Of a DNA stretch of 64,000 nt, positions 14,038 through 59,622 are shown one piece after another. A program made the position numbers and the translations under genes. Numbering within the stretch: the first letter of the stretch is position 1; the number at the start of each line of letters is the position of its first letter. This DNA is from a virus. Its lineage: Duplodnaviria; Heunggongvirae; Uroviricota; Caudoviricetes. Below the pieces are notes generated by a model that worked only from the letters and a program-made list of their open reading frames with translations, ran no database searches and had not been told where the DNA came from. The stretch lies in the IMG/VR virus record IMGVR_UViG_2875703104_000004; one strand, 5' to 3'.

Positions 14038-14365
14038 AGATGGGNTTTTCTGCGTTCCTGGGGAAAATGGGCATCAGTATGAATGACAGGGCGCGGGCAA
14101 CAGAATTACTGGCAGATTATGCACTCAGTCGGTGCGATCGTGTGGCGGCGTTGAGAAAACTTCCGGCAGAAATAAAACCGGTAGTGATGCGCATTATGGC
14201 TTCGTACGCTTTTGAGGATTATGCCCGCAGCGCAGCGAGTAAAAAGCAGTGCCCTTGTTGCTATGGGGAAAAATTTATTGAAAGCGTAGTTTTTACAAAC
14301 AAGGTCCAGTATCCGGATGGTAAGCCGCCGGTATGGGCAAAGTGTACGAAAGGTGTGTATTCGTC
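13903..14365 (+). CDS. Q: Lambda-Q-like late antiterminator, 3' end cut off at the N at 14366 (an N-terminal copy also at 13483-13617)
   Basis: KYYSPKSPGLTD...LSITDVMAAQGMTQNRA...CPCCYG resembles lambda Q (FHSPKSP...DVMAAMGM...) by recall. Confidence 0.6.
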
Positions 14366-14366
14366 N
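14366..14366. other. Probable contig junction (single N) between the phage Q gene and a truncated chromosomal/island gene
   Basis: Coding frame of Q and of the opposing SitA-like gene both terminate at this N. Confidence 0.7.
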
Positions 14367-14917
14367 AGTTCCGTAATCTGCTTACGCAGGGGGGCAAGGG
14401 TTTGGGTAATCTTGGCTTTATAAGTATCGGCATTGCGTTGGTAGGTTTGTGCATTTGCCGGATCGTATTTTATCAACGCATCACGAATATTATCGACGTA
14501 AATCAGAGCATTATCTGGCGACATCCATGCATGGGGGTTAGGTTTGCCCTCATAGGGTCCTTCGGTGATCCCTACAGGCGTCACACCCGAAGAGACAATT
14601 ACTTCTGGAACCCCATTGAGATGCTGGTAAAAGCGTTGGAACCACAATTCCAGATTCATACCATTGGCGAGAATCAGTTGTGCCCCCTGCGCACGTTTAA
14701 TATCGCCAGGGGTAGGCTGATACTCATGAATTTCTGCACCAGGCTTGGTTATGGATGAGACTTCTGCAGCATCTCCCGCCACGTTTTTGGCCATATCCGC
14801 GATGATGGTAAATGTTGTAATGACCTTGAATTTTTCAGTTGCACTTGCCTGAAATGCGATCGAGCAGGTGAGTGCGAGGCCCCCCAAGAGCATGGTTACT
14901 TTTTTTATCGAGTGCAT
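14367..14917 (-). CDS. N-terminal 183 aa of a SitA/YfeA/MntC-family Mn/Fe ABC-transporter periplasmic binding protein (truncated at the junction)
   Basis: Signal peptide MHSIKKVTMLLGGLALTCSIAFQASA then TroA-like region EKFKVITTFTIIADMAK...EIHEYQPTPGDIKRA...NPHAWMSP. Confidence 0.7.
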
Positions 14918-15603
14918 AATTTAGTACCTATAGTGAGCAAAATTAGAACAAACATAGCAACGGCTATGTTTTATAGCACAACCTATACAAAATGAAAATG
15001 ATTATCATTAGCGGTTTTGAGGCCCAAAACAGGGATTAGGTTGTTTCCGGCTGGCGACGCGTTATTGAGGAAAAAAGTAAGGCAGCTAGTAGGCTTTGAA
15101 ATAACGTTTTGCGGTTGGCTGATGCAATTTCGAGAGTGCATGTATTGAATGATTTCTAGCCGTTACTGATTTTCGTATTTTTTGTATGGGAGGATTTGCA
15201 CCTCTCCCCACCGAGCCTCCATGACTTTACTCCACTGTCTCTAGGGCTGCTGTGTGCCAGGAGCGGAAGCAGGGGGGCCAGAGACTCCTTAAAAGTTGAT
15301 AGCTCGTTTTGCAGGGAGACTTACACGGTAAGCGTTATTCCGAAGAGCTTAAAATTGAAGCAGTCAAACGGGTTGTTGAGCGTGTTTATGCGCTGCCATC
15401 TGATTAATCGACGGAAGCAGTTCCGTTTGGTCTATGATGCAGTTGTCCGGCAGGCGCTCTGTGACGCAAAAGAACGATAGGAGTAGCATTGAAGTGAACG
15501 AGGTTATGCTTGTCTTATATTATCCTCTATTTTAAAAACATCAGCTGGTTGTGTAAGAGTTTTTATTGTTTTATCTTGTTGACTTTGCTTTTATGAAAAC
15601 AGA

Positions 15604-17434: not shown

Positions 17435-18952
17435 ATGGATATCATTATTGTACCCCGAGACCAACGTATTCCTGCCTCAGGCATTAGTACGGCTTACTTG
17501 CATGTGGATCATTGGAATGACTTTTCATTCATTACAATGTTTTACATGTATCTGTTTGATCAGAAAGGTGAACGCCATGAAATTGGGAATGTCAAGATTG
17601 GTTTTCAAGGACAAACAACTCAACAATCAACTTACTCCACATTAGGGGACAGGTTTAAAATTCTCCCAGAAGGATATTTTTCCGTTGGTCAGGATGTCGA
17701 CTATTATCAGAGGATTTCAAATTTACCAGAATCCGTCAAAGTTTCGTTACTTGAGGCGCTCAAAGATATTGCTTATACGCCAGAACTTATAGATTTCGTT
17801 AAGAATGAAGCGGTCTTTAAAACGTCTTTGCTTCGGTATGTTAGCCTGTCTGTTATTAAAGGACAGTTTGCGCGAGTGCTTGAGGGAAAGGGTCCACTGA
17901 CTAATTTTGAGTTTAAGTTCATTCGCCCTGCACAAGACAAAATTTCCGATATTGAATTATCATTTAAGGTAAAAGTAGGAGAAAAACCAAGTACCAATAT
18001 TCATGCGATCATAGGTCGTAATGGTGTGGGGAAAACGACGATTCTAAATGGAATGATTGAAGCTGTTACCAGTAAAGGTACGTCGAACGCAAAATTTTAT
18101 GATCTGGAGGGGTGGAGAGAAGACCCGATTGATAATGATTACTTTAGTAGTTTAGTCTCTGTGTCATTTAGCGCATTCGATCCATTCGAGCCACCAAGTG
18201 AACAACCTGATCCATCAAAGGGAACTTGCTACTTCTATATAGGTTTGAAAAAAAAAGGAGAGTCGCTGAAAGGGCTAAATGATATTCATGAAGACTTTCT
18301 AGAAGCTTTGACGCTATGCTTTAGCCAGCATCCTAAGCGTGAAAGATGGCTGAAGGCCATTGATACTTTGGAGTCTGATGAAAATTTTGCAAGCATGGAG
18401 CTGAAAAATCTAGCGGAATACAATGATGAGATGCTCGTTAGTAATGCACGGAAATGTATAAAAAGGATGAGTTCCGGTCATGCGGTTGTGTTATTAACAC
18501 TCACACGTTTAGTCGCAACGGTAGAAGAAAAAACGTTAGTGCTAATTGATGAACCAGAGAGCCATCTTCATCCTCCGTTGCTGTCTGCTTTTATTCGTGC
18601 GCTGTCTGATTTGCTACTTGACAGAAATGGTCTTTCTATTATTGCTACTCACTCACCTGTGGTACTTCAAGAGGTCCCTAAACGATGTGTTTGGAAAATT
18701 AATCGTTCTAGATTATCTACCGAATCTCGCAGGCCAGACATTGAAACATTTGGTGAGAATGTAGGAATCTTAACAAGAGAGGTGTTTGGTCTTGAAGTTG
18801 TCAAATCTGGTTTTCACGATTTATTAGTCCAATCAGTTAAGTCAGGTGGAACATATGAGGAGATAGTTGATGAGTATCGTAACCAGCTTGGTGTTGAAGC
18901 TCGAGCTCTATTAAAAGCGCTTGTCACACACAGAGATCGGAGTGTTAAGTAA
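17435..18952 (+). CDS. ABC-type (AAA_15/AAA_21-like) ATPase with a 190-aa N-terminal domain of unknown function; first gene of a candidate defence pair
   Basis: 505-aa ORF; Walker A IIGRNGVGKTT, Walker B/D-loop LVLIDEPESHLHPPL, H-loop ATHSP; stop overlaps the start of the next gene (TAATG). Confidence 0.8.
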   Translation: MDIIIVPRDQRIPASGISTAYLHVDHWNDFSFITMFYMYLFDQKGERHEIGNVKIGFQGQTTQQSTYSTLGDRFKILPEGYFSVGQDVDYYQRISNLPESVKVSLLEALKDIAYTPELIDFVKNEAVFKTSLLRYVSLSVIKGQFARVLEGKGPLTNFEFKFIRPAQDKISDIELSFKVKVGEKPSTNIHAIIGRNGVGKTTILNGMIEAVTSKGTSNAKFYDLEGWREDPIDNDYFSSLVSVSFSAFDPFEPPSEQPDPSKGTCYFYIGLKKKGESLKGLNDIHEDFLEALTLCFSQHPKRERWLKAIDTLESDENFASMELKNLAEYNDEMLVSNARKCIKRMSSGHAVVLLTLTRLVATVEEKTLVLIDEPESHLHPPLLSAFIRALSDLLLDRNGLSIIATHSPVVLQEVPKRCVWKINRSRLSTESRRPDIETFGENVGILTREVFGLEVVKSGFHDLLVQSVKSGGTYEEIVDEYRNQLGVEARALLKALVTHRDRSVK

Positions 18953-35190: not shown

Positions 35191-35687
35191 TGCCTCCATC
35201 ATTACGAAAAGCCGTTGCTGCTGCTATTGGTGGCGGAGCAATTGCTATAGCATCAGTGTTAATCACTGGCCCAAGTGGTAACGATGGTCTGGAAGGTGTC
35301 AGCTACATACCATACAAAGATATTGTTGGTGTATGGACTGTATGTCACGGGCATACAGGAAAAGACATCATGCTCGGTAAAACGTATACCAAAGCAGAAT
35401 GCAAAGCCCTCCTGAATAAAGACCTTGCCACGGTCGCCAGACAAATTAACCCGTACATCAAAGTCGATATACCGGAAACAATGCGCGGCGCTCTTTACTC
35501 ATTCGTTTACAACGTGGGTGCTGGCAATTTCAGAACATCGACGCTTCTTCGCAAAATAAACCAGGGCGATATCAAAGGCGCATGTGATCAGCTACGTCGC
35601 TGGACATATGCTGGCGGTAAGCAATGGAAAGGTCTCATGACTCGTCGTGAGATTGAGCGTGAAATCTGTTTGTGGGGTCAGCAATGA
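35190..35687 (+). CDS. rrrD: Phage lysozyme (endolysin), 165 aa
   Basis: T4-lysozyme-like; position between holin and Rz; matches DLP12 RrrD by recall. Confidence 0.9.
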
Positions 35688-36145
35688 ACAGAGTAACCGC
35701 GATTATCTCCGCTCTGGTTATCTGCATCATCGTCTGCCTGTCATGGGCTGTTAATCATTACCGTGATAACGCCATTACCTACAAAGCCCAGCGCGACAAA
35801 AATGCCAGAGAACTGACGCTGGCGAACGCGGCAATTACTGACATACAGATGCGTCAGCGTGATGTTGCTGCGCTCGATGCAAAATACACGAAGGAGTTAG
35901 CTGATGCGAAAGCTGAAAATGATGCTCTGCGTGATGATGTTGCCGCTGGTCGTCGTCGGTTGCACATCAAAGCAGTCTGTCAGTCAGTGCGTGAAGCCAC
36001 CACCGCCTCCGGCGTGGATAATGCAGCCTCCCCCCGACTGGCAGACACCGCTGAACGGGATTATTTCACCCTCAGAGAGAGGCTGATCACTATGCAAAAA
36101 CAACTGGAAGGAACCCAGAAGTATATTAATGAGCAGTGCAGATAG
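35684..36145 (+). CDS. rzpD: Rz-like i-spanin
   Basis: N-terminal TM helix then coiled-coil region; overlaps the lysozyme stop. Confidence 0.8.
35904..36086 (+). CDS. rzoD: Rz1-like o-spanin lipoprotein embedded in the +1 frame of Rz (60 aa)
   Basis: Lipobox LPLVVVGC and proline-rich [19 protein letters not shown]; ORF entirely inside Rz. Confidence 0.75.
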
Positions 36146-36176: not shown

Positions 36177-36470
36177 TTATTGTGAGCAATACACACGCGC
36201 TTCCAGCGGAGTATAAATGCCTAAAGTAATAAAACCGAGCAATCCATTTACGAATGTTTGCTGGGTTTCTGTTTTAACAACATTTTCTGCACCACCACAA
36301 ATTTTTGCTGCATCGACAGTTTTCTTCTGCCCAATTCCCGAAACGAAGAAATGATGGGTGATGGTTTCCTTTGGTGTTACTGCTGTAGGTTTGTTTCCAA
36401 CAGTAAACGTCTGTTGAGCACATCCTGTAATAAGCATTGCCAGAGCGGCAGAAAACAACATTTTTTTCAT
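36177..36470 (-). CDS. borD: Bor lipoprotein (97 aa)
   Basis: MKKMLFSAALAMLITGCAQQTFTV...ETITHHFFVSGIGQKKTVDAAKICGGAENVVKTETQQTFVNGLLGFITLGIYTPLEARVYCSQ, near-identical to lambda Bor by recall. Confidence 0.85.
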   Translation of the reverse strand: MKKMLFSAALAMLITGCAQQTFTVGNKPTAVTPKETITHHFFVSGIGQKKTVDAAKICGGAENVVKTETQQTFVNGLLGFITLGIYTPLEARVYCSQ

Positions 36471-36730: not shown

Positions 36731-37360
36731 ATAATTAAAAACGATGCACACCGGGTTTTTACCGCGTTAATGATTCGCGGGTTTATCCCGGTGCGATGGT
36801 GGAAGAAACAGGAAGCTGTATTACAGAAAGTGCTACTACTGTATCCCGATGCGATGTATGTAATGTGAGTCAGATAATGGCACAGGATGTGGTGATGTGG
36901 CAGTCTGGAACACAGGATATATTGTCAGAATAAGACCCGTAGGAATAAAAATGAAAAGACGCCTTTTACTACTTTTTCTGTTATCTGTCCTGGCAGTGGG
37001 ATGCTCGCAGCAAAAAGCTGATGAGCCCCGGCAATTAGTGACGGTGTATCCACGATATCCGGAATATGCTGCAGCAAATTATATCAAGGGGCTGGTTGAG
37101 GTTAAGTTCGATATTGGTGCTGATGGGACTGTGACACGGATCGTTTTTCTCCGCTCAGAGCCTCATAATTTGTTTCGTGATGAAGTGGTGAAGGCCATGG
37201 CGAAATGGCGATTTGAAAAGAATCGCCCCTGTCAGGGAGTGAAGAGACAATTTATCTTTACGCCGTCACGTCCTTGATGCTTCCAGGTAGAGAGGGGCTG
37301 GAAGCAGGAGAAAAATGAAAGAGCCAGCGGTTATATTTTTGTCATGGCTGACGAGGAATG
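36731..37360. repeat. 630-bp segment repeated at 57433-58062 (carries the 3' end of the truncated tail-fibre ORF and a lipoprotein gene); followed by an N at 37361
   Basis: Seen directly; copies near-identical. Confidence 0.85.
36951..37277 (+). CDS. Lipoprotein with TonB-C-terminal-like domain (108 aa); copy 1
   Basis: MKRRLLLLFLLSVLAVGCSQ lipobox; ...YPRYPEYAAANYIKGLVEVKFDIGADGTVTRIVFLRSEPHNLFRDEVVKAMAKWRFE resembles the TonB C-terminal fold motif. Confidence 0.6.
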   Translation: MKRRLLLLFLLSVLAVGCSQQKADEPRQLVTVYPRYPEYAAANYIKGLVEVKFDIGADGTVTRIVFLRSEPHNLFRDEVVKAMAKWRFEKNRPCQGVKRQFIFTPSRP

Positions 37361-37483
37361 NGGTAAACGACGCACTTGTGCCGGCACATAATAGCAAGCA
37401 CCATAATAGATCAGATTCGATTCTTGCTGTAAGTGATAATTATTCTCGTTTTCGGGTCCTTTCCGTCGATCCAACAGGTTACG

Positions 37484-37495
37484 GGGCGGCGACCT
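37484..37495 (+). promoter_or_regulatory. cos: cosN (12-nt cohesive-end sequence GGGCGGCGACCT) with cosB-like sequence downstream; cos site 1
   Basis: Exact match to the lambda cohesive end by recall, followed by CGCGG(T)TTTTC(A/G)CTATTTATGAAAATTTT, about 188 bp upstream of the Nu1-like gene. Confidence 0.75.
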
Positions 37496-37671: not shown

Positions 37672-38220
37672 ATGAAGGTTAATAAAAAGAGGCTTGCCGA
37701 AATTTTCAACGTGGACCCGCGGACGATTGAACGCTGGCAGTCTCAGGGACTCCCTTGCGCCTCCAAAGGTAGTAAGGGCATTGAATCTGTATTTGATACT
37801 GCCATGGCAATTCAGTGGTATGCGCAGAGGGAAACTGATATCGAAAACGAAAAGCTCCGCAAAGAACTGGACGATTTGCGTGCGGCAGCGGAGTCAGATT
37901 TACAACCCGGCACCATTGACTATGAACGCTACCGGCTCACAAAAGCGCAGGCAGATGCGCAGGAACTGAAAAATGCCCGTGAAGACGGAGTAGTGCTGGA
38001 AACTGAACTGTTTACCTTCATTCTGCAACGTGTGGCACAGGAGATTTCGGGGATACTTGTGCGTGTGCCGTTGACATTACAGCGTAAATATCCGGACATT
38101 TCACCATCACACCTTGATGTGGTGAAAACTGAAATCGCGAAAGCCTCCAATGTTGCAGCTAAGGCCGGTGAAAACGTGGGCGGGTGGATCGATGATTTCA
38201 GACGCGCAGAAGGCAGCTAA
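37672..38220 (+). CDS. nu1: Terminase small subunit (Nu1-like), 182 aa
   Basis: Winged-HTH N-terminus ...[12 protein letters not shown]...; conserved ...[18 protein letters not shown]...[27 protein letters not shown]... as in lambda Nu1 (recall). Confidence 0.85.
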
Positions 38221-53227: not shown

Positions 53228-56200
53228 ATGGGTAAAGGCAGCAGTAAGGGGCATACCCCGCGCGAAGCGAAGGACAACCTGAAATCATCCCAGATGCTGA
53301 GCGTGATAGACGCCATCAGCGAAGGGCCGGTTGAAGGTCCGGTGGATGGATTAAAAAGCGTGCTGCTGAACAGTACGCCGGTGCTGGACAGTGAGGGGAA
53401 TACCAATATATTCGGCGTCACGGTGGTGTTCCGGGCCGGTGAGCAGGAGCAGACACCGCCGGAGGGATTTGAATCCTCCGGCTCCGAGACGGTGCTCGGT
53501 ACAGAAGTGAAATATGACACGCCGATCACCCGGACCATCACGTCGGCAAACATTGACCGTCTGCGTTTTACTTTCGGCGTGCAGGCACTGGTGGAAACCA
53601 CCTCAAAGGGGGACAGGAATCCATCGGAAGTCCGCCTGCTGGTTCAGATTCAACGTAACGGTGGCTGGGTGACGGAAAAAGACATCACCATTAAGGGCAA
53701 AACCACGTCGCAGTATCTGGCCTCGGTGGTGGTGGATAACCTGCCGCCGCGCCCGTTTAATATCCGGATGCGCAGGATGACGCCGGACAGCACCACAGAC
53801 CAGTTGCAGAACAAAACGCTCTGGTCGTCATACACCGAAATCATCGATGTGAAACAGTGCTACCCGAACACGGCACTGGTCGGCGTACAGGTGGACTCGG
53901 AGCAGTTCGGCAGCCAGCAGGTGAGCCGTAATTATCATCTTCGCGGGCGCATTCTGCAGGTGCCGTCGAACTATAACCCGCAGACGCGGCAATACAGCGG
54001 TATCTGGGACGGAACGTTTAAGCCAGCATACAGCAACAACATGGCCTGGTGTCTGTGGGATATGCTGACCCATCCGCGCTACGGCATGGGGAAACGTCTT
54101 GGTGCGGCAGATGTGGATAAATGGGCGCTGTATGTCATCGGCCAGAATTGCGACCAGTCAGTGCCGGACGGCTTTGGCGGCACGGAGCCGCGCATCACCT
54201 GTAATGCGTACCTGACCACACAGCGCAAGGCGTGGGATGTGCTCAGTGATTTTTGCTCGGCGATGCGCTGTATGCCGGTATGGAACGGGCAGACGCTGAC
54301 ATTCGTGCAGGACCGACCGTCGGATAAGGTGTGGACCTATAACCGCAGTAATGTGGTGATGCCGGATGATGGCGCGCCGTTCCGCTACAGCTTCAGCGCC
54401 CTGAAAGACCGCCATAATGCCGTTGAGGTGAACTGGATTGACCCGGATAACGGCTGGGAGACGGCGACAGAGCTTGTGGAGGACACGCAGGCCATTGCCC
54501 GTTACGGTCGTAACGTCACGAAGATGGATGCCTTTGGCTGTACCAGCCGGGGGCAGGCACACCGCGCCGGGCTGTGGCTGATTAAAACGGAGCTGCTGGA
54601 AACGCAGACCGTGGACTTCAGCGTGGGTGCAGAAGGGCTTCGCCATGTACCGGGCGATGTCATTGAAATCTGTGATGATGACTATGCGGGGATCAGCATC
54701 GGCGGGCGCGTGCTGGCGGTGAACAACCAGACGCGGACACTGACGCTCGACCGTGAAATCACGCTGCCATCCTCCGGCACCACGCTGATAAGCCTGGCTG
54801 ACGGACAGGGGAATCCGGTCAGCGTGGAGGTCCAGTCCGTCACCGACGGCGTGAAGGTAAAAGTGAGCCGTGTTCCTGACGGCGTTGCAGAATACAGCGT
54901 GTGGGGGCTGAAGTTGCCAACGTTGCGCCAGCGCCTGTTCCGCTGTGTGAGTATCCGTGAGAACGATGACGGCACGTATGCCATCACTGCCGTGCAGCAT
55001 GTACCGGAAAAAGAGGCCATCGTGGATAACGGGGCGCACTTTGACGGCGACCAGAGCGGCACGGTGAATGGTGTCACGCCGCCAGCGGTGCAGCACCAGC
55101 GGGGAATATCAGGTGCTGGCGCGCTGGGACACGCCGAAGGTGGTGAAGGGGGTGAGCTTTATGCTTCGCCTGACCGTGGCAGCGGATGACGGCAGTGAGC
55201 GGCTGGTCAGCACGGCCCGGACGACGGAAACCACATACCGCTTCAGGCAACTGGCGCTGGGGAACTACAGGCTGACAGTCCGGGCGGTAAATGCGTGGGG
55301 GCAGCAGGGCGATCCGGCATCGGTATCGTTCCGGATTGCCGCACCGGCAGCGCCGTCGCAGATTGAGCTGACACCGGGGTATTTTCAGATAACCGCCACG
55401 CCGCATCTTGCGGTTTATGATCCGACGGTACAGTTTGAGTTCTGGTTCTCGGAAAAGCGGATTGCGGATATCAGGCAGGTTGAAACCACAGCACGCTATC
55501 TTGGCACGGCGCTGTACTGGATAGCCGCCAGTATCAATATCAAACCGGGCCATGATTATTATTTTTACATCCGCAGTGTGAACACCGTTGGCAAATCGGC
55601 ATTTGTGGAGGCTGTTGGCCAGCCGAGTGATGATGCATCCGGCTATCTGAATTTTTTCAAAGGAGAGATAGGGAAAACCCATCTGGCTCAGGAGTTGTGG
55701 ACGCAGATTGATAACGGTCAGCTTGCGCCTGACCTGGCTGAAATCAGGACGTCCATTACGGGTGTCAGCAATGAAATCACGCAGACCGTCAATAAGAAAC
55801 TGGAAGACCAGAGTGCAGCGATCCAGCAGATACAGAAGGTTCAGGTTGATACAAATAATAACCTGAACAGCATGTGGGCTGTGAAGCTGCAGCAGATGCA
55901 GGACGGACGCCTTTATATCGCGGGTATTGGTGCCGGTGTTGAGAATACTCCTGACGGTATGCAGAGTCAGGTGCTGCTGGCGGCGGACAGGATTGCGATG
56001 ATTAATCCTGCGAATGGCAACACAAAGCCGATGTTTGTTGGGCAGGGCGATCAGATATTCATGAACGAAGTGTTCCTGAAATATCTGACGGCTCCCACCA
56101 TTACCAGCGGTGGCAATCCCCCAACGTTTTCACTGACACCTGATGGTCGACTTTCTGCGAAAAATGCGGATATCAGCGGTAACGTGAACGCGAACTCCGG

Positions 56201-56687
56201 GACGCTCAACAACGTCACGATTAATCAGAACTGTCGGATTCTGGGAAAACTGTCAGCTAACCAGATTGAAGGTGATATTGTCAAAACGGTGGGAAAAGCC
56301 TTTCCGAGAAATGGCAGTTATGCCAGCGGTACAATAACGGTCACTGTGTACGATGACCAGGCTTTTGACCGTCAGATAGTAGTCCCCCCCGTTCTGTTTC
56401 GTGGGGGTAAGCATGAAAACTTCAACAGCAACAACCAACAGTCATACTGGTATTCAACCTGTAAGCTGCAGGTACTGAAGAACGGACAGGAAATCTTTCA
56501 GCAACCCGCGACGGATGTCAGCAGGGTATTTTCATCAGTCATTGATATGCCTGCCGGACACGGCCATGTCACCCTGACTTTCAATGTTTCTTCATATGGT
56601 GCTAATAACTGGACGCCAACGACCAGTATCAGCGACCTTCTTGTTGTTGTGATGAAGAAATCTACAGCCGGTATCAGTATCAGTTGA
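53228..56687 (+). pseudogene. J: Tail tip / host specificity protein J, broken by a roughly 23-bp frame-shifting deletion near 55096
   Basis: ORFs 53228-55189 and 55068-56687 are co-linear with lambda J; junction ...PPAVQH | (missing LTAEVTADS) | [17 protein letters not shown] by recall. Confidence 0.8.
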
Positions 56688-56739
56688 ATTTTATAACCCA
56701 GATACGGGCGCCAGAAATGGCGCCTTTTTTATTTGTGGA

Positions 56740-57570
56740 GTGAATATGGCAGTACAGATTTCAGGCGTGCTGAAAGACGGTGCAGGAAAACCGATACAGA
56801 ACTGCACCATTCAGCTCAAAGCAAAACGTAACAGCACCACGGTTGTGGTGAACACGGTGGCCTCAGAAAATCCGGATGAAGCCGGACGTTACAGCATGGA
56901 TGTCGAGTATGGCCAGTACAGCGTTATCCTGCTGGTTGAAGGTTTTCCGCCTTCACATGCCGGGGCCATCACCGTGTATGAGGATTCTAAGCCGGGGACA
57001 TTGAATGATTTTCTGGGCGCTGCAACAGAAGATGATGTTCGTCCGGAGGCACTGTATCGTTTTGAAAAGATGGTGGAAGAGGTGGCACGCAACGCTGAAG
57101 CCGCCTCTCAGAGCGCAGCGGCAGCAAAGAAATCAGAAACAGCAGCGGCATCGTCCAGGAATGCGGCGAAAACATCAGAGACGAATGCAGGTAACAGCGC
57201 GAAAGCGGCAGCTTCTTCAAAAACAGCCGCACAAAACGCAGCAACAGCGGCAGAACGTTCAGAGACAAATGCCCGTGCGTCAGAAGAAGCCTCCGCAGAC
57301 AGTGAAGAGGCTTCCCGCCGTAATGCAGAGTCAGCCGCTGAAAATGCCGGAGTCGCCACCACAAAAGCGCGGGAGGCCGCAGCAGACGCAACAAAGGCCG
57401 GGCAGAAAAAGGATGAGGCTCTGTCGGCAGCGATAATTAAAAACGATGCACACCGGGTTTTTACCGCGTTAATGATTCGCGGGTTTATCCCGGTGCGATG
57501 GTGGAAGAAACAGGAAGCTGTATTACAGAAAGTGCTACTACTGTATCCCGATGCGATGTATGTAATGTGA
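56740..57570 (+). CDS. stf: Side tail fibre protein Stf, N-terminal about 230 aa only, fused to an unrelated 3' tail
   Basis: MAVQISGVLKDGAGKPIQNCTIQLKAKRNSTTVVVNTVASENPDEAGRYSMDVEYGQYSVILLVEGFPPSHAG... matches the lambda Stf N-terminus by recall; C-terminal part not Stf-like. Confidence 0.7.
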   Translation: MNMAVQISGVLKDGAGKPIQNCTIQLKAKRNSTTVVVNTVASENPDEAGRYSMDVEYGQYSVILLVEGFPPSHAGAITVYEDSKPGTLNDFLGAATEDDVRPEALYRFEKMVEEVARNAEAASQSAAAAKKSETAAASSRNAAKTSETNAGNSAKAAASSKTAAQNAATAAERSETNARASEEASADSEEASRRNAESAAENAGVATTKAREAAADATKAGQKKDEALSAAIIKNDAHRVFTALMIRGFIPVRWWKKQEAVLQKVLLLYPDAMYVM

Positions 57571-58062
57571 GTCAGATAATGGCACAGGATGTGGTGATGT
57601 GGCAGTCTGGAACACAGGATATATTGTCAGAATAAGACCCGTAGGAATAAAAATGAAAAGACGCCTTTTACTACTTTTTCTGTTATCTGTCCTGGCAGTG
57701 GGATGCTCGCAGCAAAAAGCTGATGAGCCCCGGCAATTAGTGACGGTGTATCCACGATATCCGGAATATGCTGCAGCAAATTATATCAAGGGGCTGGTTG
57801 AGGTTAAGTTCGATATTGGTGCTGATGGGACTGTGACACGGATCGTTTTTCTCCGCTCAGAGCCTCATAATTTGTTTCGTGATGAAGTGGTGAAGGCCAT
57901 GGCGAAATGGCGATTTGAAAAGAATCGCCCCTGTCAGGGAGTGAAGAGACAATTTATCTTTACGCCGTCACGTCCTTGATGCTTCCAGGTAGAGAGGGGC
58001 TGGANGCAGGAGAAAAATGAAAGAGCCAGCGGTTATATTTTTGTCATGGCTGACGAGGAATG
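57433..58062. repeat. Second copy of the 630-bp segment also present at 36731-37360
   Basis: Seen directly; contains an N at 58005. Confidence 0.85.
57653..57979 (+). CDS. Lipoprotein with TonB-C-terminal-like domain; copy 2
   Basis: Identical protein to 36951-37277. Confidence 0.6.
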   Translation: MKRRLLLLFLLSVLAVGCSQQKADEPRQLVTVYPRYPEYAAANYIKGLVEVKFDIGADGTVTRIVFLRSEPHNLFRDEVVKAMAKWRFEKNRPCQGVKRQFIFTPSRP

Positions 58063-58342
58063 ATGGAAGAAGGCGTTGTATGCCACACAACGCCTCACTG
58101 TTCATTTCTTCTTTTTCTCTGGTGGAACCCGATGAATAAGAGTTGCACTGGTTTCCGATGAGATGGCGATATACTCGGGCAAAGTATGCTGGCAGTTTTC
58201 CAACTGGTCAAAAATACCTGCTCTCGTCTGTTGCAATGCCTGCAGCATGCGGCGGCAATGCGCCTTGCTTTTACTAACCATCTTTCCTTCCTCTATCAGT
58301 CGCTGCGTGAACTCATCATGNAATACCAGGTAAATGCGGATG

Positions 58343-58594
58343 TTATCGGTTTTGGCTACGCAGCATAGTACAAAACGGACAGGTGCATCCCGGGACGGGG
58401 GAGGCGTCACATGTCCCTGTGATGGTTGTTCCGGGTAATGNACTGTGTGGGGCATAAAAATGTCCGATAATTTTACTTTCTACCGCAGTTAGTTGATTCG
58501 TTGGTCCTGGTAGCACATTGGGCGAGGATTTAAATGCCAGGCAACTGAAGGATGATGTNGCAAGGGAGATAGCGAGAATATTTCTGATTTTCAT
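58343..58594 (-). CDS. Possible small secreted protein (MKIRNILAISL.TSSFSCLAF...), low-quality region with several Ns
   Basis: Internal start of ORF 58343-58663; signal-peptide-like N-terminus; sequence carries Ns. Confidence 0.25.
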   Translation of the reverse strand: MKIRNILAISLXTSSFSCLAFKSSPNVLPGPTNQLTAVESKIIGHFYAPHSXLPGTTITGTCDASPVPGCTCPFCTMLRSQNR

Positions 58595-58608
58595 TTGATG
58601 ATGCCTCT

Positions 58609-58908
58609 GTGTGAAATGACGGTAAACGACGCACTTGTGCCGGCACATAATAGCAAGCACCATAATAGATCAGATTCGATTCTTGCTGTAAGTGATAATT
58701 ATTCTCGTTTTCGGGTCCTTTCCGTCGATCCAACAGGTTACGGGGCGGCGACCTCGCGGTGTGAAATGACGGTAAACGACGCACTTGTGCCGGCACATAA
58801 TAGCAAGCACCATAATAGATCAGATTCGATTCTTGCTGTAAGTGATAATTATTCTCGTTTTCGGGTCCTTTCCGTCGATCCAACAGGTTACGGGGCGGCG
58901 ACCTCGCG
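58609..58908. repeat. Two tandem copies of a 150-bp cos-proximal unit (58609-58758, 58759-58908); one further copy at about 37362-37500
   Basis: Seen directly; each unit ends in the cosN sequence. Confidence 0.8.
58893..58904 (+). promoter_or_regulatory. cos: cosN (GGGCGGCGACCT) followed by cosB-like CGCGGGTTTTCGCTATTTATGAAAATTTT; cos site 2
   Basis: Exact match to the lambda left-end sequence by recall; 181 bp upstream of the second Nu1-like gene. Confidence 0.75.
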
Positions 58909-59073
58909 GGTTTTCGCTATTTATGAAAATTTTTAGGGAAAAATCAGATCCGTTTTTCTTCTTTTTAACTGATTGATTATCAATAGAATTTTAAAAATAT
59001 AAAAGGATCTAACAAAGGCTGTTTTTGTTAGAAAACGCCATTTTCAGATCCTTTCTGGTTCCCGGGGGAGTGT

Positions 59074-59622
59074 ATGAACGTCAATAAGAAAAAACTGGCC
59101 GATATTTTTGGCGTTGATGTCAGGACCATCACCGCCTGGCAGAGTCAGGGGTTACCACTAGTTTCTGGTGGAGGGAAAGGGACTGAATCAGTTTTTGATA
59201 CAACTGCTGCCATTCAGTGGTATGCGCAGAGGGAAGCTGATATTAAAAACGAAAAACTCCGTAAAGAGATCGAGGATTTGAGGGCTGCCAGCGAATCAGA
59301 CCTTCAGCCCGGCACCATTGATTACGAACGTTACCGACTGACGAAGGCACAGGCCGATGCACAGGAGCTGAAAAATGCTCGTGAGGAAGGCCTTGTCCTC
59401 GAGACGGAGTTATTTACCTACATCTTTCAGCGAGTGGCACAGAATATATCAGGGATCCTTGTCCGTGTCCCTCAGACACTGCAGCGTAAATACCCTGATA
59501 TATCACCCGTACATCTTGATGCTGTGAAAACTGAAATCGCGAAAGCATCCGATGTGGCTTCTGAAGCCGGTGAGAATGTGCGCAGGTGGATTGATGATTT
59601 CAGACGAACTGAGGGCGGCTAA
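59074..59622 (+). CDS. nu1: Terminase small subunit (Nu1-like), second divergent copy (182 aa)
   Basis: Same length as 37672-38220 with many substitutions ([36 protein letters not shown]...). Confidence 0.85.

Follow-up and report, generated by a model that had tools for sequence, protein, structure and literature searches.

Why should a phage keep, in the interval between its lysis genes and its packaging genes, the C-terminal domain (CTD) of TonB and almost nothing else of that protein? This is the question raised by a gene encoding 108 amino acids (aa) at positions 36951-37277 of the virus record IMGVR_UViG_2875703104_000004 (Caudoviricetes), a stretch of 64,000 nucleotides which, taken at its full length, we call the window. 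A sequence-only reading of this DNA had noticed a small lipoprotein with a TonB-like mature part, lying between bor or stf and cos in each of two modules, and had seen in it a candidate for superinfection exclusion. The gene and its TonB_C domain are already on record. What is new is that it belongs to a family, under selection and composed mostly of lipoproteins, in which the TonB CTD stands alone, that its phage members occupy a fixed slot and that the family is linked to the iron regulator Fur.

The gene is real, an open reading frame (ORF) preceded by a ribosome-binding site (RBS), and the lipoprotein nature that had been proposed is supported by a lipobox whose cysteine, Cys18, is kept in relatives. 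The N-terminus of the protein reads MKRRLLLLFLLSVLAVGC followed by SQQ, that is, a positive charge and a hydrophobic core (MKRR-LLLLFLLSVL), the lipobox AVG-C18 and then SQ. Tested at the level of sequence, it fits the pattern [LVI][ASTVI][GAS]C with no aspartate at position +2. Lipoproteins are sorted according to their +2 residue, an established rule, and because serine stands there (with glutamine at +3), not the aspartate that would signal avoidance of the Lol system, this TonB-like lipoprotein is predicted to reach the outer membrane. The lipobox cysteine is nearly invariant among close relatives (alignment A1) and less so once the alignment is widened (A2 and A4); it persists down to about 35% identity, and the lipoprotein architecture is retained at 35-47%. 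What makes TonB an energy transducer is missing. A cleavable lipoprotein signal replaces the N-terminal inner-membrane anchor that couples TonB to ExbB and ExbD, and the proline-rich spacer that spans the periplasm is absent, just 9 residues separating Cys18 from the domain.

The resemblance of the mature part to the TonB CTD, which the sequence-only reading had suggested, goes far beyond chance. It matches Pfam PF03544 (TonB_C) with E=7e-13 and 49.2 bits, for a gathering score of 24.6, and NCBIfam TIGR01352 with 47.4 bits, for a cut-off of 27.1, while all NCBIfam matches are either TonB-related or under their cut-offs. Profiles of full-length TonB equivalogs (NCBIfam PRK10819) reach at best 69 bits where 315 are needed, with a match that starts at about profile position 150. 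When the protein was compared with the PDB using phmmer, the best matches were all TonB CTDs (1u07_A, E=1.4e-14, ungapped over residues 24-103; also 2gsk_B and 2grx_C), and identity to Escherichia coli TonB is 38-40% over these 80 residues. As the alignment to TonB residues 151-230 is ungapped, the mature protein (residues 19-108) reads as essentially one whole TonB CTD placed behind a tether of about 9 residues; only the last four TonB residues are wanting, and in the structural model the protein ends, 5 residues past strand beta3, in a proline-rich tail.

Structure prediction, the check that had been proposed at the outset, leads to the same view. AlphaFold from the single sequence was unusable (predicted local distance difference test, pLDDT, 51) and was replaced by a run of AlphaFold2 with a family alignment of 35 sequences, which gave a pLDDT of 86, above 95 across most of the domain and below 50 at residues 17-21, with the first strand at residues 28-30. 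Used as a Foldseek query against the PDB, this model returned TonB or FusB CTDs in all of the top 11 places, with probability 1.00 and, in ten of them, a root-mean-square deviation (rmsd) of 0.9-1.6 Å. Among these are receptor-bound forms of TonB, with BtuB (2gsk_B, rmsd 1.1 Å, TM score 0.94 on the target) and with FhuA (2grx_C, 0.9 Å), and overlay of the model on TonB bound to either receptor gives 0.9-1.2 Å. TolA domain III is a known distant structural cousin of the TonB CTD; it ranks far lower in the list. The predicted structure confirms the TonB CTD fold, a three-stranded sheet with two helices.

The residues that have been conserved are those of TonB itself. The YP motif is kept (Y36 and P37, corresponding to TonB Y163 and P164), as is the aromatic core, F53, F75, W86, F88 and F103 standing for TonB F180, F202, W213, Y215 and F230. 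Strand beta3 comprises residues 94-103, and its counterpart in TonB is the strand that pairs with the TonB box of transporters. Alignment A2 has E. coli TonB 151-239 among its rows, and all of its invariant or nearly invariant columns carry the TonB residue (P26, P34, Y36, P37, A40, G47, V49, D54, G59, P71, F75, W86, P93 and F103); we can therefore understand that the surface of the protein, YP motif and beta3 included, has stayed typical of TonB.

How widespread, then, is this gene, and under which names has it travelled? It is 100% identical to CPT_21_73 of phage 21 (UMO75484.1; OL657228), annotated 'TonB C-terminal domain protein', and identical copies are found in phage Perceval ('TonB fragment'), in ev017 ('Partial tonB-like membrane protein encoded within prophage CP-933N') and in three PhiR phages, including PhiR57_1. 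It is present in 1225 of 5426 complete E. coli genomes, at least 99% identical in 1203 of them, under the PGAP name 'TonB family protein'; homologues occur in just 15 of 50,697 phage records. Other lambdoid phages match the flanking sequence only, so that the gene has the hallmark of a moron, inserted between conserved phage modules and absent from close relatives. Among the annotations that we have seen, none names its lipoprotein nature, and the paper describing the phage 21 genome has no discussion of it. PHROGs assigns it to phrog_1267 (E=5e-43), labelled 'Rz-like spanin' in the category lysis; this label, which misfits a globular TonB CTD, most likely spread from annotation by position, and automatic phage annotation will carry it onward.

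The sequence-only reading had pointed to conservation of the gene in both modules of the window. As an argument this is void. Over the stretch from -220 to +409 relative to the ATG the two copies do not differ in their DNA, save for an N at position 58005 in copy 2, so that they represent one module present twice, not independent evidence of conservation, and nothing is learned from them on selection. Divergent homologues provide a better argument. Phage copies follow the holin, endolysin and spanin genes and precede the terminase, in the direction of the late operon, and this same slot is seen in five lineages: the phage 21 type, the JLK-2012/Stx1a type (HNH-TerS-TerL), Klebsiella phage ST13-OXA48phi12.4, a prophage on the Salmonella plasmid pRM11060-2, and a Rahnella prophage with lambda-like Nu1/A. 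This is an independent positional conservation that the window copies cannot give.

Selection on the gene can be measured against a variant, 67-72% identical, found in E. coli prophages of another type (JLK-2012, Stx1a, with HNH-TerS-TerL and HK97-like heads). The ratio of nonsynonymous to synonymous substitution rates (dN/dS) between the window gene and this approximately 70%-identical E. coli variant is 0.10-0.12, with synonymous sites near saturation, and it is likewise low when the signal peptide and the mature part are considered separately. The gene is under strong purifying selection.

Beyond phages, HMMER searches retrieved many full-length relatives of about 105-130 aa, with 30-47% identity and mostly with a lipobox, in Klebsiella, Raoultella, Pantoea, Serratia and Rahnella. 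These small secreted proteins, which are annotated 'TonB family protein' and also occur in Erwinia and Salmonella, form a TonB_C family of Enterobacterales to which the window protein belongs: it shares their architecture, aligns with them over its full length at 30-49% identity, carries the signature SEPxHLFDxxVxxAxxKWRFE, and is closer to the small Klebsiella proteins (45-49% identity) than to E. coli TonB (38-40%). In contrast to the window gene, most of these relatives are borne by chromosomes or plasmids and are preceded by a Fur box. Chromosomal loci, found with an alignment of six sequences, place the non-phage relatives as stand-alone genes at unrelated sites, to which Klebsiella IncFII plasmids must be added; the chromosomal homologues have no shared neighbours, although one of the Klebsiella loci has a TonB-dependent receptor at a distance of about 4.5 kb. 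No described function for any member of the family was found in our literature search.

A subgroup from Serratia (about 30% identity) departs from this picture, having an ordinary (type I) signal peptide, hence no lipoprotein. There, the TonB_C protein belongs to a cassette of three genes, with a colicin-immunity gene (PF03526) and, on the opposite strand, a pore-forming colicin. The cassette (L025:3001-5510 and L032:4001-6447) occurs in two settings, chromosomal and plasmid-like, and other strains lack it at the corresponding place in the chromosome. The colicin combines a TolB/TolA-binding N-terminus like that of colicin A with a pore domain like those of Ia and Ib. We had considered that it might be TonB-dependent, in view of an N-terminal 'DSMTV', and rejected this possibility, as the N-terminus matches the TolB/TolA-binding region of colicin A. 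The Serratia link is therefore with imported toxins generally, and lends no direct support to capture of TonB boxes.

Is the gene expressed, and under what control? In strain LF82, the identical gene of the Perceval prophage, LF82_160, is transcribed in LB 8-fold over the prophage background, which led the authors of that study to class it as a moron (PMC9928086). Expression from a repressed prophage is thus documented, by that literature only. Upstream of the window gene, no sigma-70 consensus promoter was found on the plus strand. To look for Fur boxes we counted matches, out of 19, to GATAATGATAATCATTATC. Most homologues outside the phage 21 type (loci L005-L012 and L021-L023) have 14-17 matches located 15-80 bp upstream of the start: 17 in Serratia grimesii, 16 in Pantoea, 15-16 in Klebsiella/Raoultella, 15 in the Salmonella prophage and 14 in Raoultella and a Klebsiella plasmid (IncFII), the E. 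coli Stx-type variant having 13. By comparison, a single one of 153 control upstream regions of the same loci reaches at least 14. These boxes point to a TonB_C family that is probably iron-regulated, as are tonB and its transporters, which would tie the family functionally to the TonB system.

Taken together, these observations lead us to a tentative interpretation, built on analogy, the most plausible of those considered here and yet in our view slightly less probable than its negation, in which the lipoprotein would act as a natural dominant-negative decoy that damps TonB-dependent entry of phages and colicins. Cys18 would be lipidated and the Lol pathway would deliver the protein to the inner leaflet of the outer membrane, where the tether of about 9 residues would keep the TonB CTD beneath the outer-membrane barrels, at their periplasmic mouth. 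The domain would then bind the TonB boxes of transporters (FhuA, FepA, Cir, BtuB and others) by addition of a beta-strand to beta3, and possibly also those of incoming group-B colicins. Docking of TonB itself proceeds through such beta-augmentation, with the TonB box aligned on beta3 (PMC11658791). Because the protein has no ExbBD link, binding would be unproductive: the domain could bind, not pull. The outcome would be less TonB-dependent irreversible adsorption or entry of rival phages (T1- and phi80-like phages, and many FhuA-dependent lambdoids), less entry of colicins and microcins, and, as the price to be paid, some loss of siderophore and B12 uptake. The gene would be a lysogenic-conversion (moron) gene, borrowed from the wider Enterobacterales family of small TonB_C proteins. 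In line with such a process, an overexpressed periplasmic TonB domain inhibits TonB-dependent iron import, according to the account given in PMC9841981 of the work of Howard et al. (2001). Expression in the lysogen and Fur boxes in relatives lend circumstantial support.

A number of observations weigh against this interpretation. The two TonB residues Q160 and R166, which contact transporters, are Tyr33 and Tyr39 in the phage protein, which might therefore bind TonB boxes with a different affinity. A cell has more transporters than TonB; a decoy must therefore be abundant, and the expression seen in LF82 is modest. In the 100 nucleotides preceding the window copy (36851-36950) the best Fur-box scores are merely 10-11 of 19, which is background level, and the phage 21-type copy seems to have swapped Fur control for prophage or late-operon expression. 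Fur induction in relatives is itself awkward, as it would raise the level of an inhibitor when TonB-dependent uptake is most needed. The receptor-binding domains of the tail-tip protein J vary among carriers, those of Perceval and phage 21 being only 45% identical, so that the gene is not tied to one receptor type; an association with a single receptor-binding J type was accordingly considered and rejected. PADLOC has no defence-system model that recognizes the gene, and our full-text literature search found no functional study of the protein, nor any report testing its binding, localization or phenotype.

Other interpretations must be weighed against the same facts. The protein could benefit the host as a modulator of TonB, an iron-starvation accessory of the Fur regulon that would park on unliganded transporters, or tune or gate uptake, in such a way that scarce TonB goes to loaded transporters; the phage would then merely carry a fitness gene, as it carries sitABCD or iss. 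What speaks for this view is that strong Fur boxes precede the chromosomal and plasmid relatives of five lineages, that the majority of relatives are stand-alone genes outside any phage context and that in Perceval, in the E. coli CEA601S prophage and in the window the gene is accompanied by morons for iron/manganese and for serum survival. Yet no conserved operon partner indicates a specific transporter, the Fur box has been lost in the phage 21-type copy, the constant position of the gene in the late operons of five phage lineages would suit a role relevant to the phage, and a free TonB CTD is not known to act positively in any other case. All in all, we see this explanation as rather unlikely. 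Proximity to bor/iss in the phage 21 type might also suggest a lipoprotein that tethers the envelope or binds peptidoglycan, stiffening the envelope and contributing to serum or stress resistance beside Bor/Iss. The TonB_C fold has indeed been reused outside transport (NCBIfam matches to AgmX/PglI and LIC_10042-type domains), and it has been proposed in the literature that the TonB C-terminus binds peptidoglycan. The explanation fits poorly, however, with the lack of an adjacent bor in the JLK-2012, Klebsiella, Salmonella and Rahnella contexts, with Fur boxes that indicate iron, not the envelope, and with conserved residues that are those of TonB proper, YP motif included; we find it improbable.

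The remaining two explanations follow from the names that databases have given to the gene. A lysis accessory of the spanin type is what the phrog_1267 label implies, and a predicted outer-membrane lipoprotein encoded beside lysis genes, after Rz/Rz1, does recall an o-spanin. Nevertheless, the lysis cassette has a genuine and complete Rz/Rz1 pair, so that the TonB-like gene is not needed in this role, the 90 mature residues make a globular TonB CTD and not the short proline-rich chain of an o-spanin, and homologues are found on chromosomes and conjugative plasmids far from lysis genes; this makes the explanation very improbable indeed. A functionless, decaying piece of host tonB, finally, would match the names 'TonB fragment', 'partial tonB-like' and 'truncated TonB-like', as well as the coverage of just the last third of TonB. 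It would not account for a gene with its own signal peptide, lipobox and RBS, nearer to the separate small TonB_C family than to E. coli TonB, at least 99% identical in 1203 genomes and transcribed in a lysogen, and the dN/dS of 0.10-0.12 effectively refutes the pseudogene, to which we attach a negligible probability.

Returning to the decoy, a more general proposal would extend it to the family as a whole. Small TonB_C proteins would make up a widespread and often Fur-regulated set of 'entry-immunity' decoys of Enterobacterales, mostly tethered to the outer membrane and encoded on chromosomes and conjugative plasmids, in prophages of at least five lineages and in a colicin-immunity cassette, which would capture TonB boxes or related translocation epitopes and would shield the cell broadly against phages, colicins and microcins, no single receptor being touched. 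In this extended form we regard the idea as doubtful. If the decoy model itself is right, a prophage gene present in about one quarter of sequenced E. coli strains would weaken the TonB-dependent route of entry as a whole, with effects on host ranges in phage therapy (T1-like phages and those dependent on FhuA, FepA or BtuB), on colicin and microcin warfare in the gut and on uptake of siderophore antibiotics, the cefiderocol-type 'Trojan horses'. This would be a receptor-independent form of superinfection exclusion, and the first natural counterpart of a dominant-negative laboratory construct known since 2001. Should the decoy prove wrong, the Fur-linked family would still mark an undescribed accessory of enterobacterial iron physiology.

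The company that the gene keeps is worth considering here. In E. coli CEA601S it persists, with iss and sitABCD, in a prophage at the icd site that has been stripped of all structural genes, and it is carried along with sitABCD in Perceval, in the CEA601S prophage and in the window. SitABCD is a TonB-independent importer of iron and manganese, and it is a matter of speculation that its presence would fit compensation for a loss of TonB-dependent uptake. The window carries this sitABCD-type moron, with a ZnuA-family ORF (sitA-like, interrupted by N) at 14261-14917 on the minus strand; a Fur box with 17 of 19 matches lies at 14994-15012, 77 bp upstream of this ORF.

Positions of the gene, its parts and its neighbours in the window
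Feature	Position	Strand	Basis
Gene, copy 1: 108-aa lipoprotein precursor with TonB CTD	36951-37277	+	ORF list, Pfam, NCBIfam, phage matches
RBS AGGA, 6 nt upstream of ATG	36941-36944	+	sequence; phage 21 RBS annotated at same place
Signal peptide and lipobox (MKRR, hydrophobic core, L-A-V-G-C18)	36951-37004	+	sequence
Codon of Cys18	37002-37004	+	sequence
Predicted flexible tether, residues 19-27 (SQQKADEPR), between lipid anchor and first strand	37005-37031	+	AlphaFold model
TonB CTD, residues 24-103, matching E. coli TonB 151-230	37020-37259	+	ungapped phmmer, model, Foldseek
630-bp module, copy 1, ending at assembly gap 'n' 37361	36731-37360	+	base-by-base extension; repeat family D2
Gene, copy 2, identical protein	57653-57979	+	sequence
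630-bp module, copy 2, left end joined to truncated stf	57433-58062	+	base-by-base extension
Rz (i-spanin)	35672-36145	+	ORF; phage 21 annotation of identical region
Rz1 (o-spanin), embedded in Rz	35904-36086		ORF
bor/iss lipoprotein gene, upstream neighbour on opposite strand	36177-36470	-	ORF; annotation in phage 21 and CEA601S
cosN GGGCGGCGACCT of copy 1	37484-37495	+	sequence; phage 21 cos records X02501, M81255
Nu1 of copy 1	37672-38220		position after cosN

The immediate neighbourhood agrees with the place, between bor or stf and cos, that the sequence-only reading had given to the gene in its two modules, except for the distance to cos. The order at copy 1 is S-R-Rz/Rz1-bor(-)-gene-cos-Nu1-A. 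Yet at the 'n' of position 37361 the window lacks about 557 bp, including small hypothetical ORFs, that phage 21 and PhiR57_1 possess, so that copy 1 looks nearer to cos than it really is. Copy 2 comes after a truncated stf (56740-57570); downstream of it cosN is present twice (58743-58754 and 58893-58904), and Nu1 is at 59074. The Nu1/A pair that follows it differs from that of copy 1, the two being about 76% identical; two different lambdoid head modules are thus found in succession in the window. Where copy 1 has a single cosN, a 150-bp segment with cosN GGGCGGCGACCT is tandemly doubled at 58621-58920, upstream of the second Nu1, which may be a real duplication of cos or an artefact of assembly at phage ends.

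Caution is also required for the left side of copy 2, where the stf ORF is cut to 276 aa and runs directly into the module of the TonB-like gene, the two being joined at 57433. For no place in the 5426 complete E. coli genomes could this junction be shown in the order of the window; the six best genome records cover 89% of the junction query, and in H54, the one inspected, the pieces are ordered differently. The window has draft status and contains 37 N, among them single ones at 58005, 58321, 58441 and 58559 and a run of 21 at 2635-2655, so that the junction may have been created in assembly or may be a rearrangement that is rare. An Rfam search of the copy-2 region from stf to cos (56700-59200) gave no match. 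Between the TonB-like gene and cos, a minus-strand ORF of 117 aa (58102-58455), which has no Pfam match and is hypothetical in PhiR57_1, occupies a place where phage 21 has small plus-strand ORFs annotated; it may be a further moron in the slot.

Elsewhere in the window, the tail-tip gene J is found in two overlapping ORFs in different frames, 53228-55189 (653 aa) and 55068-56687 (539 aa), a split that is due to a frameshift or a sequencing error. The C-terminal 169 aa of J are 100% identical to the central tail fibre of phage 21 and just 49% identical to lambda J. Within the prophage region, an ORF of 505 aa on the plus strand (17435-18952) has AAA_21/AAA_15 domains (AbiEii-like, OLD/ABC-type ATPase) and is a possible anti-phage defence gene.

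It remains to place the protein among systems that are already understood. With the CTD of E. coli TonB (1U07 and 1XX3; 2GSK with BtuB, 2GRX with FhuA) it shares the predicted fold, at 0.9-1.2 Å rmsd, and differs from TonB as a whole in lacking the transmembrane anchor, the proline-rich spacer and the link to ExbBD, a lipoprotein signal being present instead. The nearest functional likeness is with engineered periplasmic fragments of TonB (Howard, Herrmann, Stratilo and Braun 2001, J Bacteriol 183:5885), which, as they are presented in PMC9841981, are anchor-free and dominant-negative, and would embody the mechanism proposed here. As far as that account goes, they were made in the laboratory, overexpressed, and free in solution in the periplasm, whereas the phage gene is natural, found on phages, plasmids and chromosomes, and its product is predicted to be lipid-anchored. 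A further comparison is with phage proteins of superinfection exclusion that block receptors. Cor (of phi80, N15, HK022 and T1) and Llp (of T5) are small phage lipoproteins of the outer membrane that inactivate FhuA from the periplasmic side. By analogy, the function that we propose would belong to the same logical class, that of protecting the cell or the progeny. Searches of Pfam, NCBIfam, PHROGs and PADLOC gave no homology of the protein to Cor or Llp, and Pfam returned TonB_C only. The genomic setting differs as well, as Cor usually adjoins tail genes, unlike the window gene, which stands between lysis and packaging genes. Finally, Cor and Llp target FhuA alone, whereas a decoy made of the TonB CTD would target the TonB box and, because this box is shared among transporters, would be expected to act over a broad spectrum.

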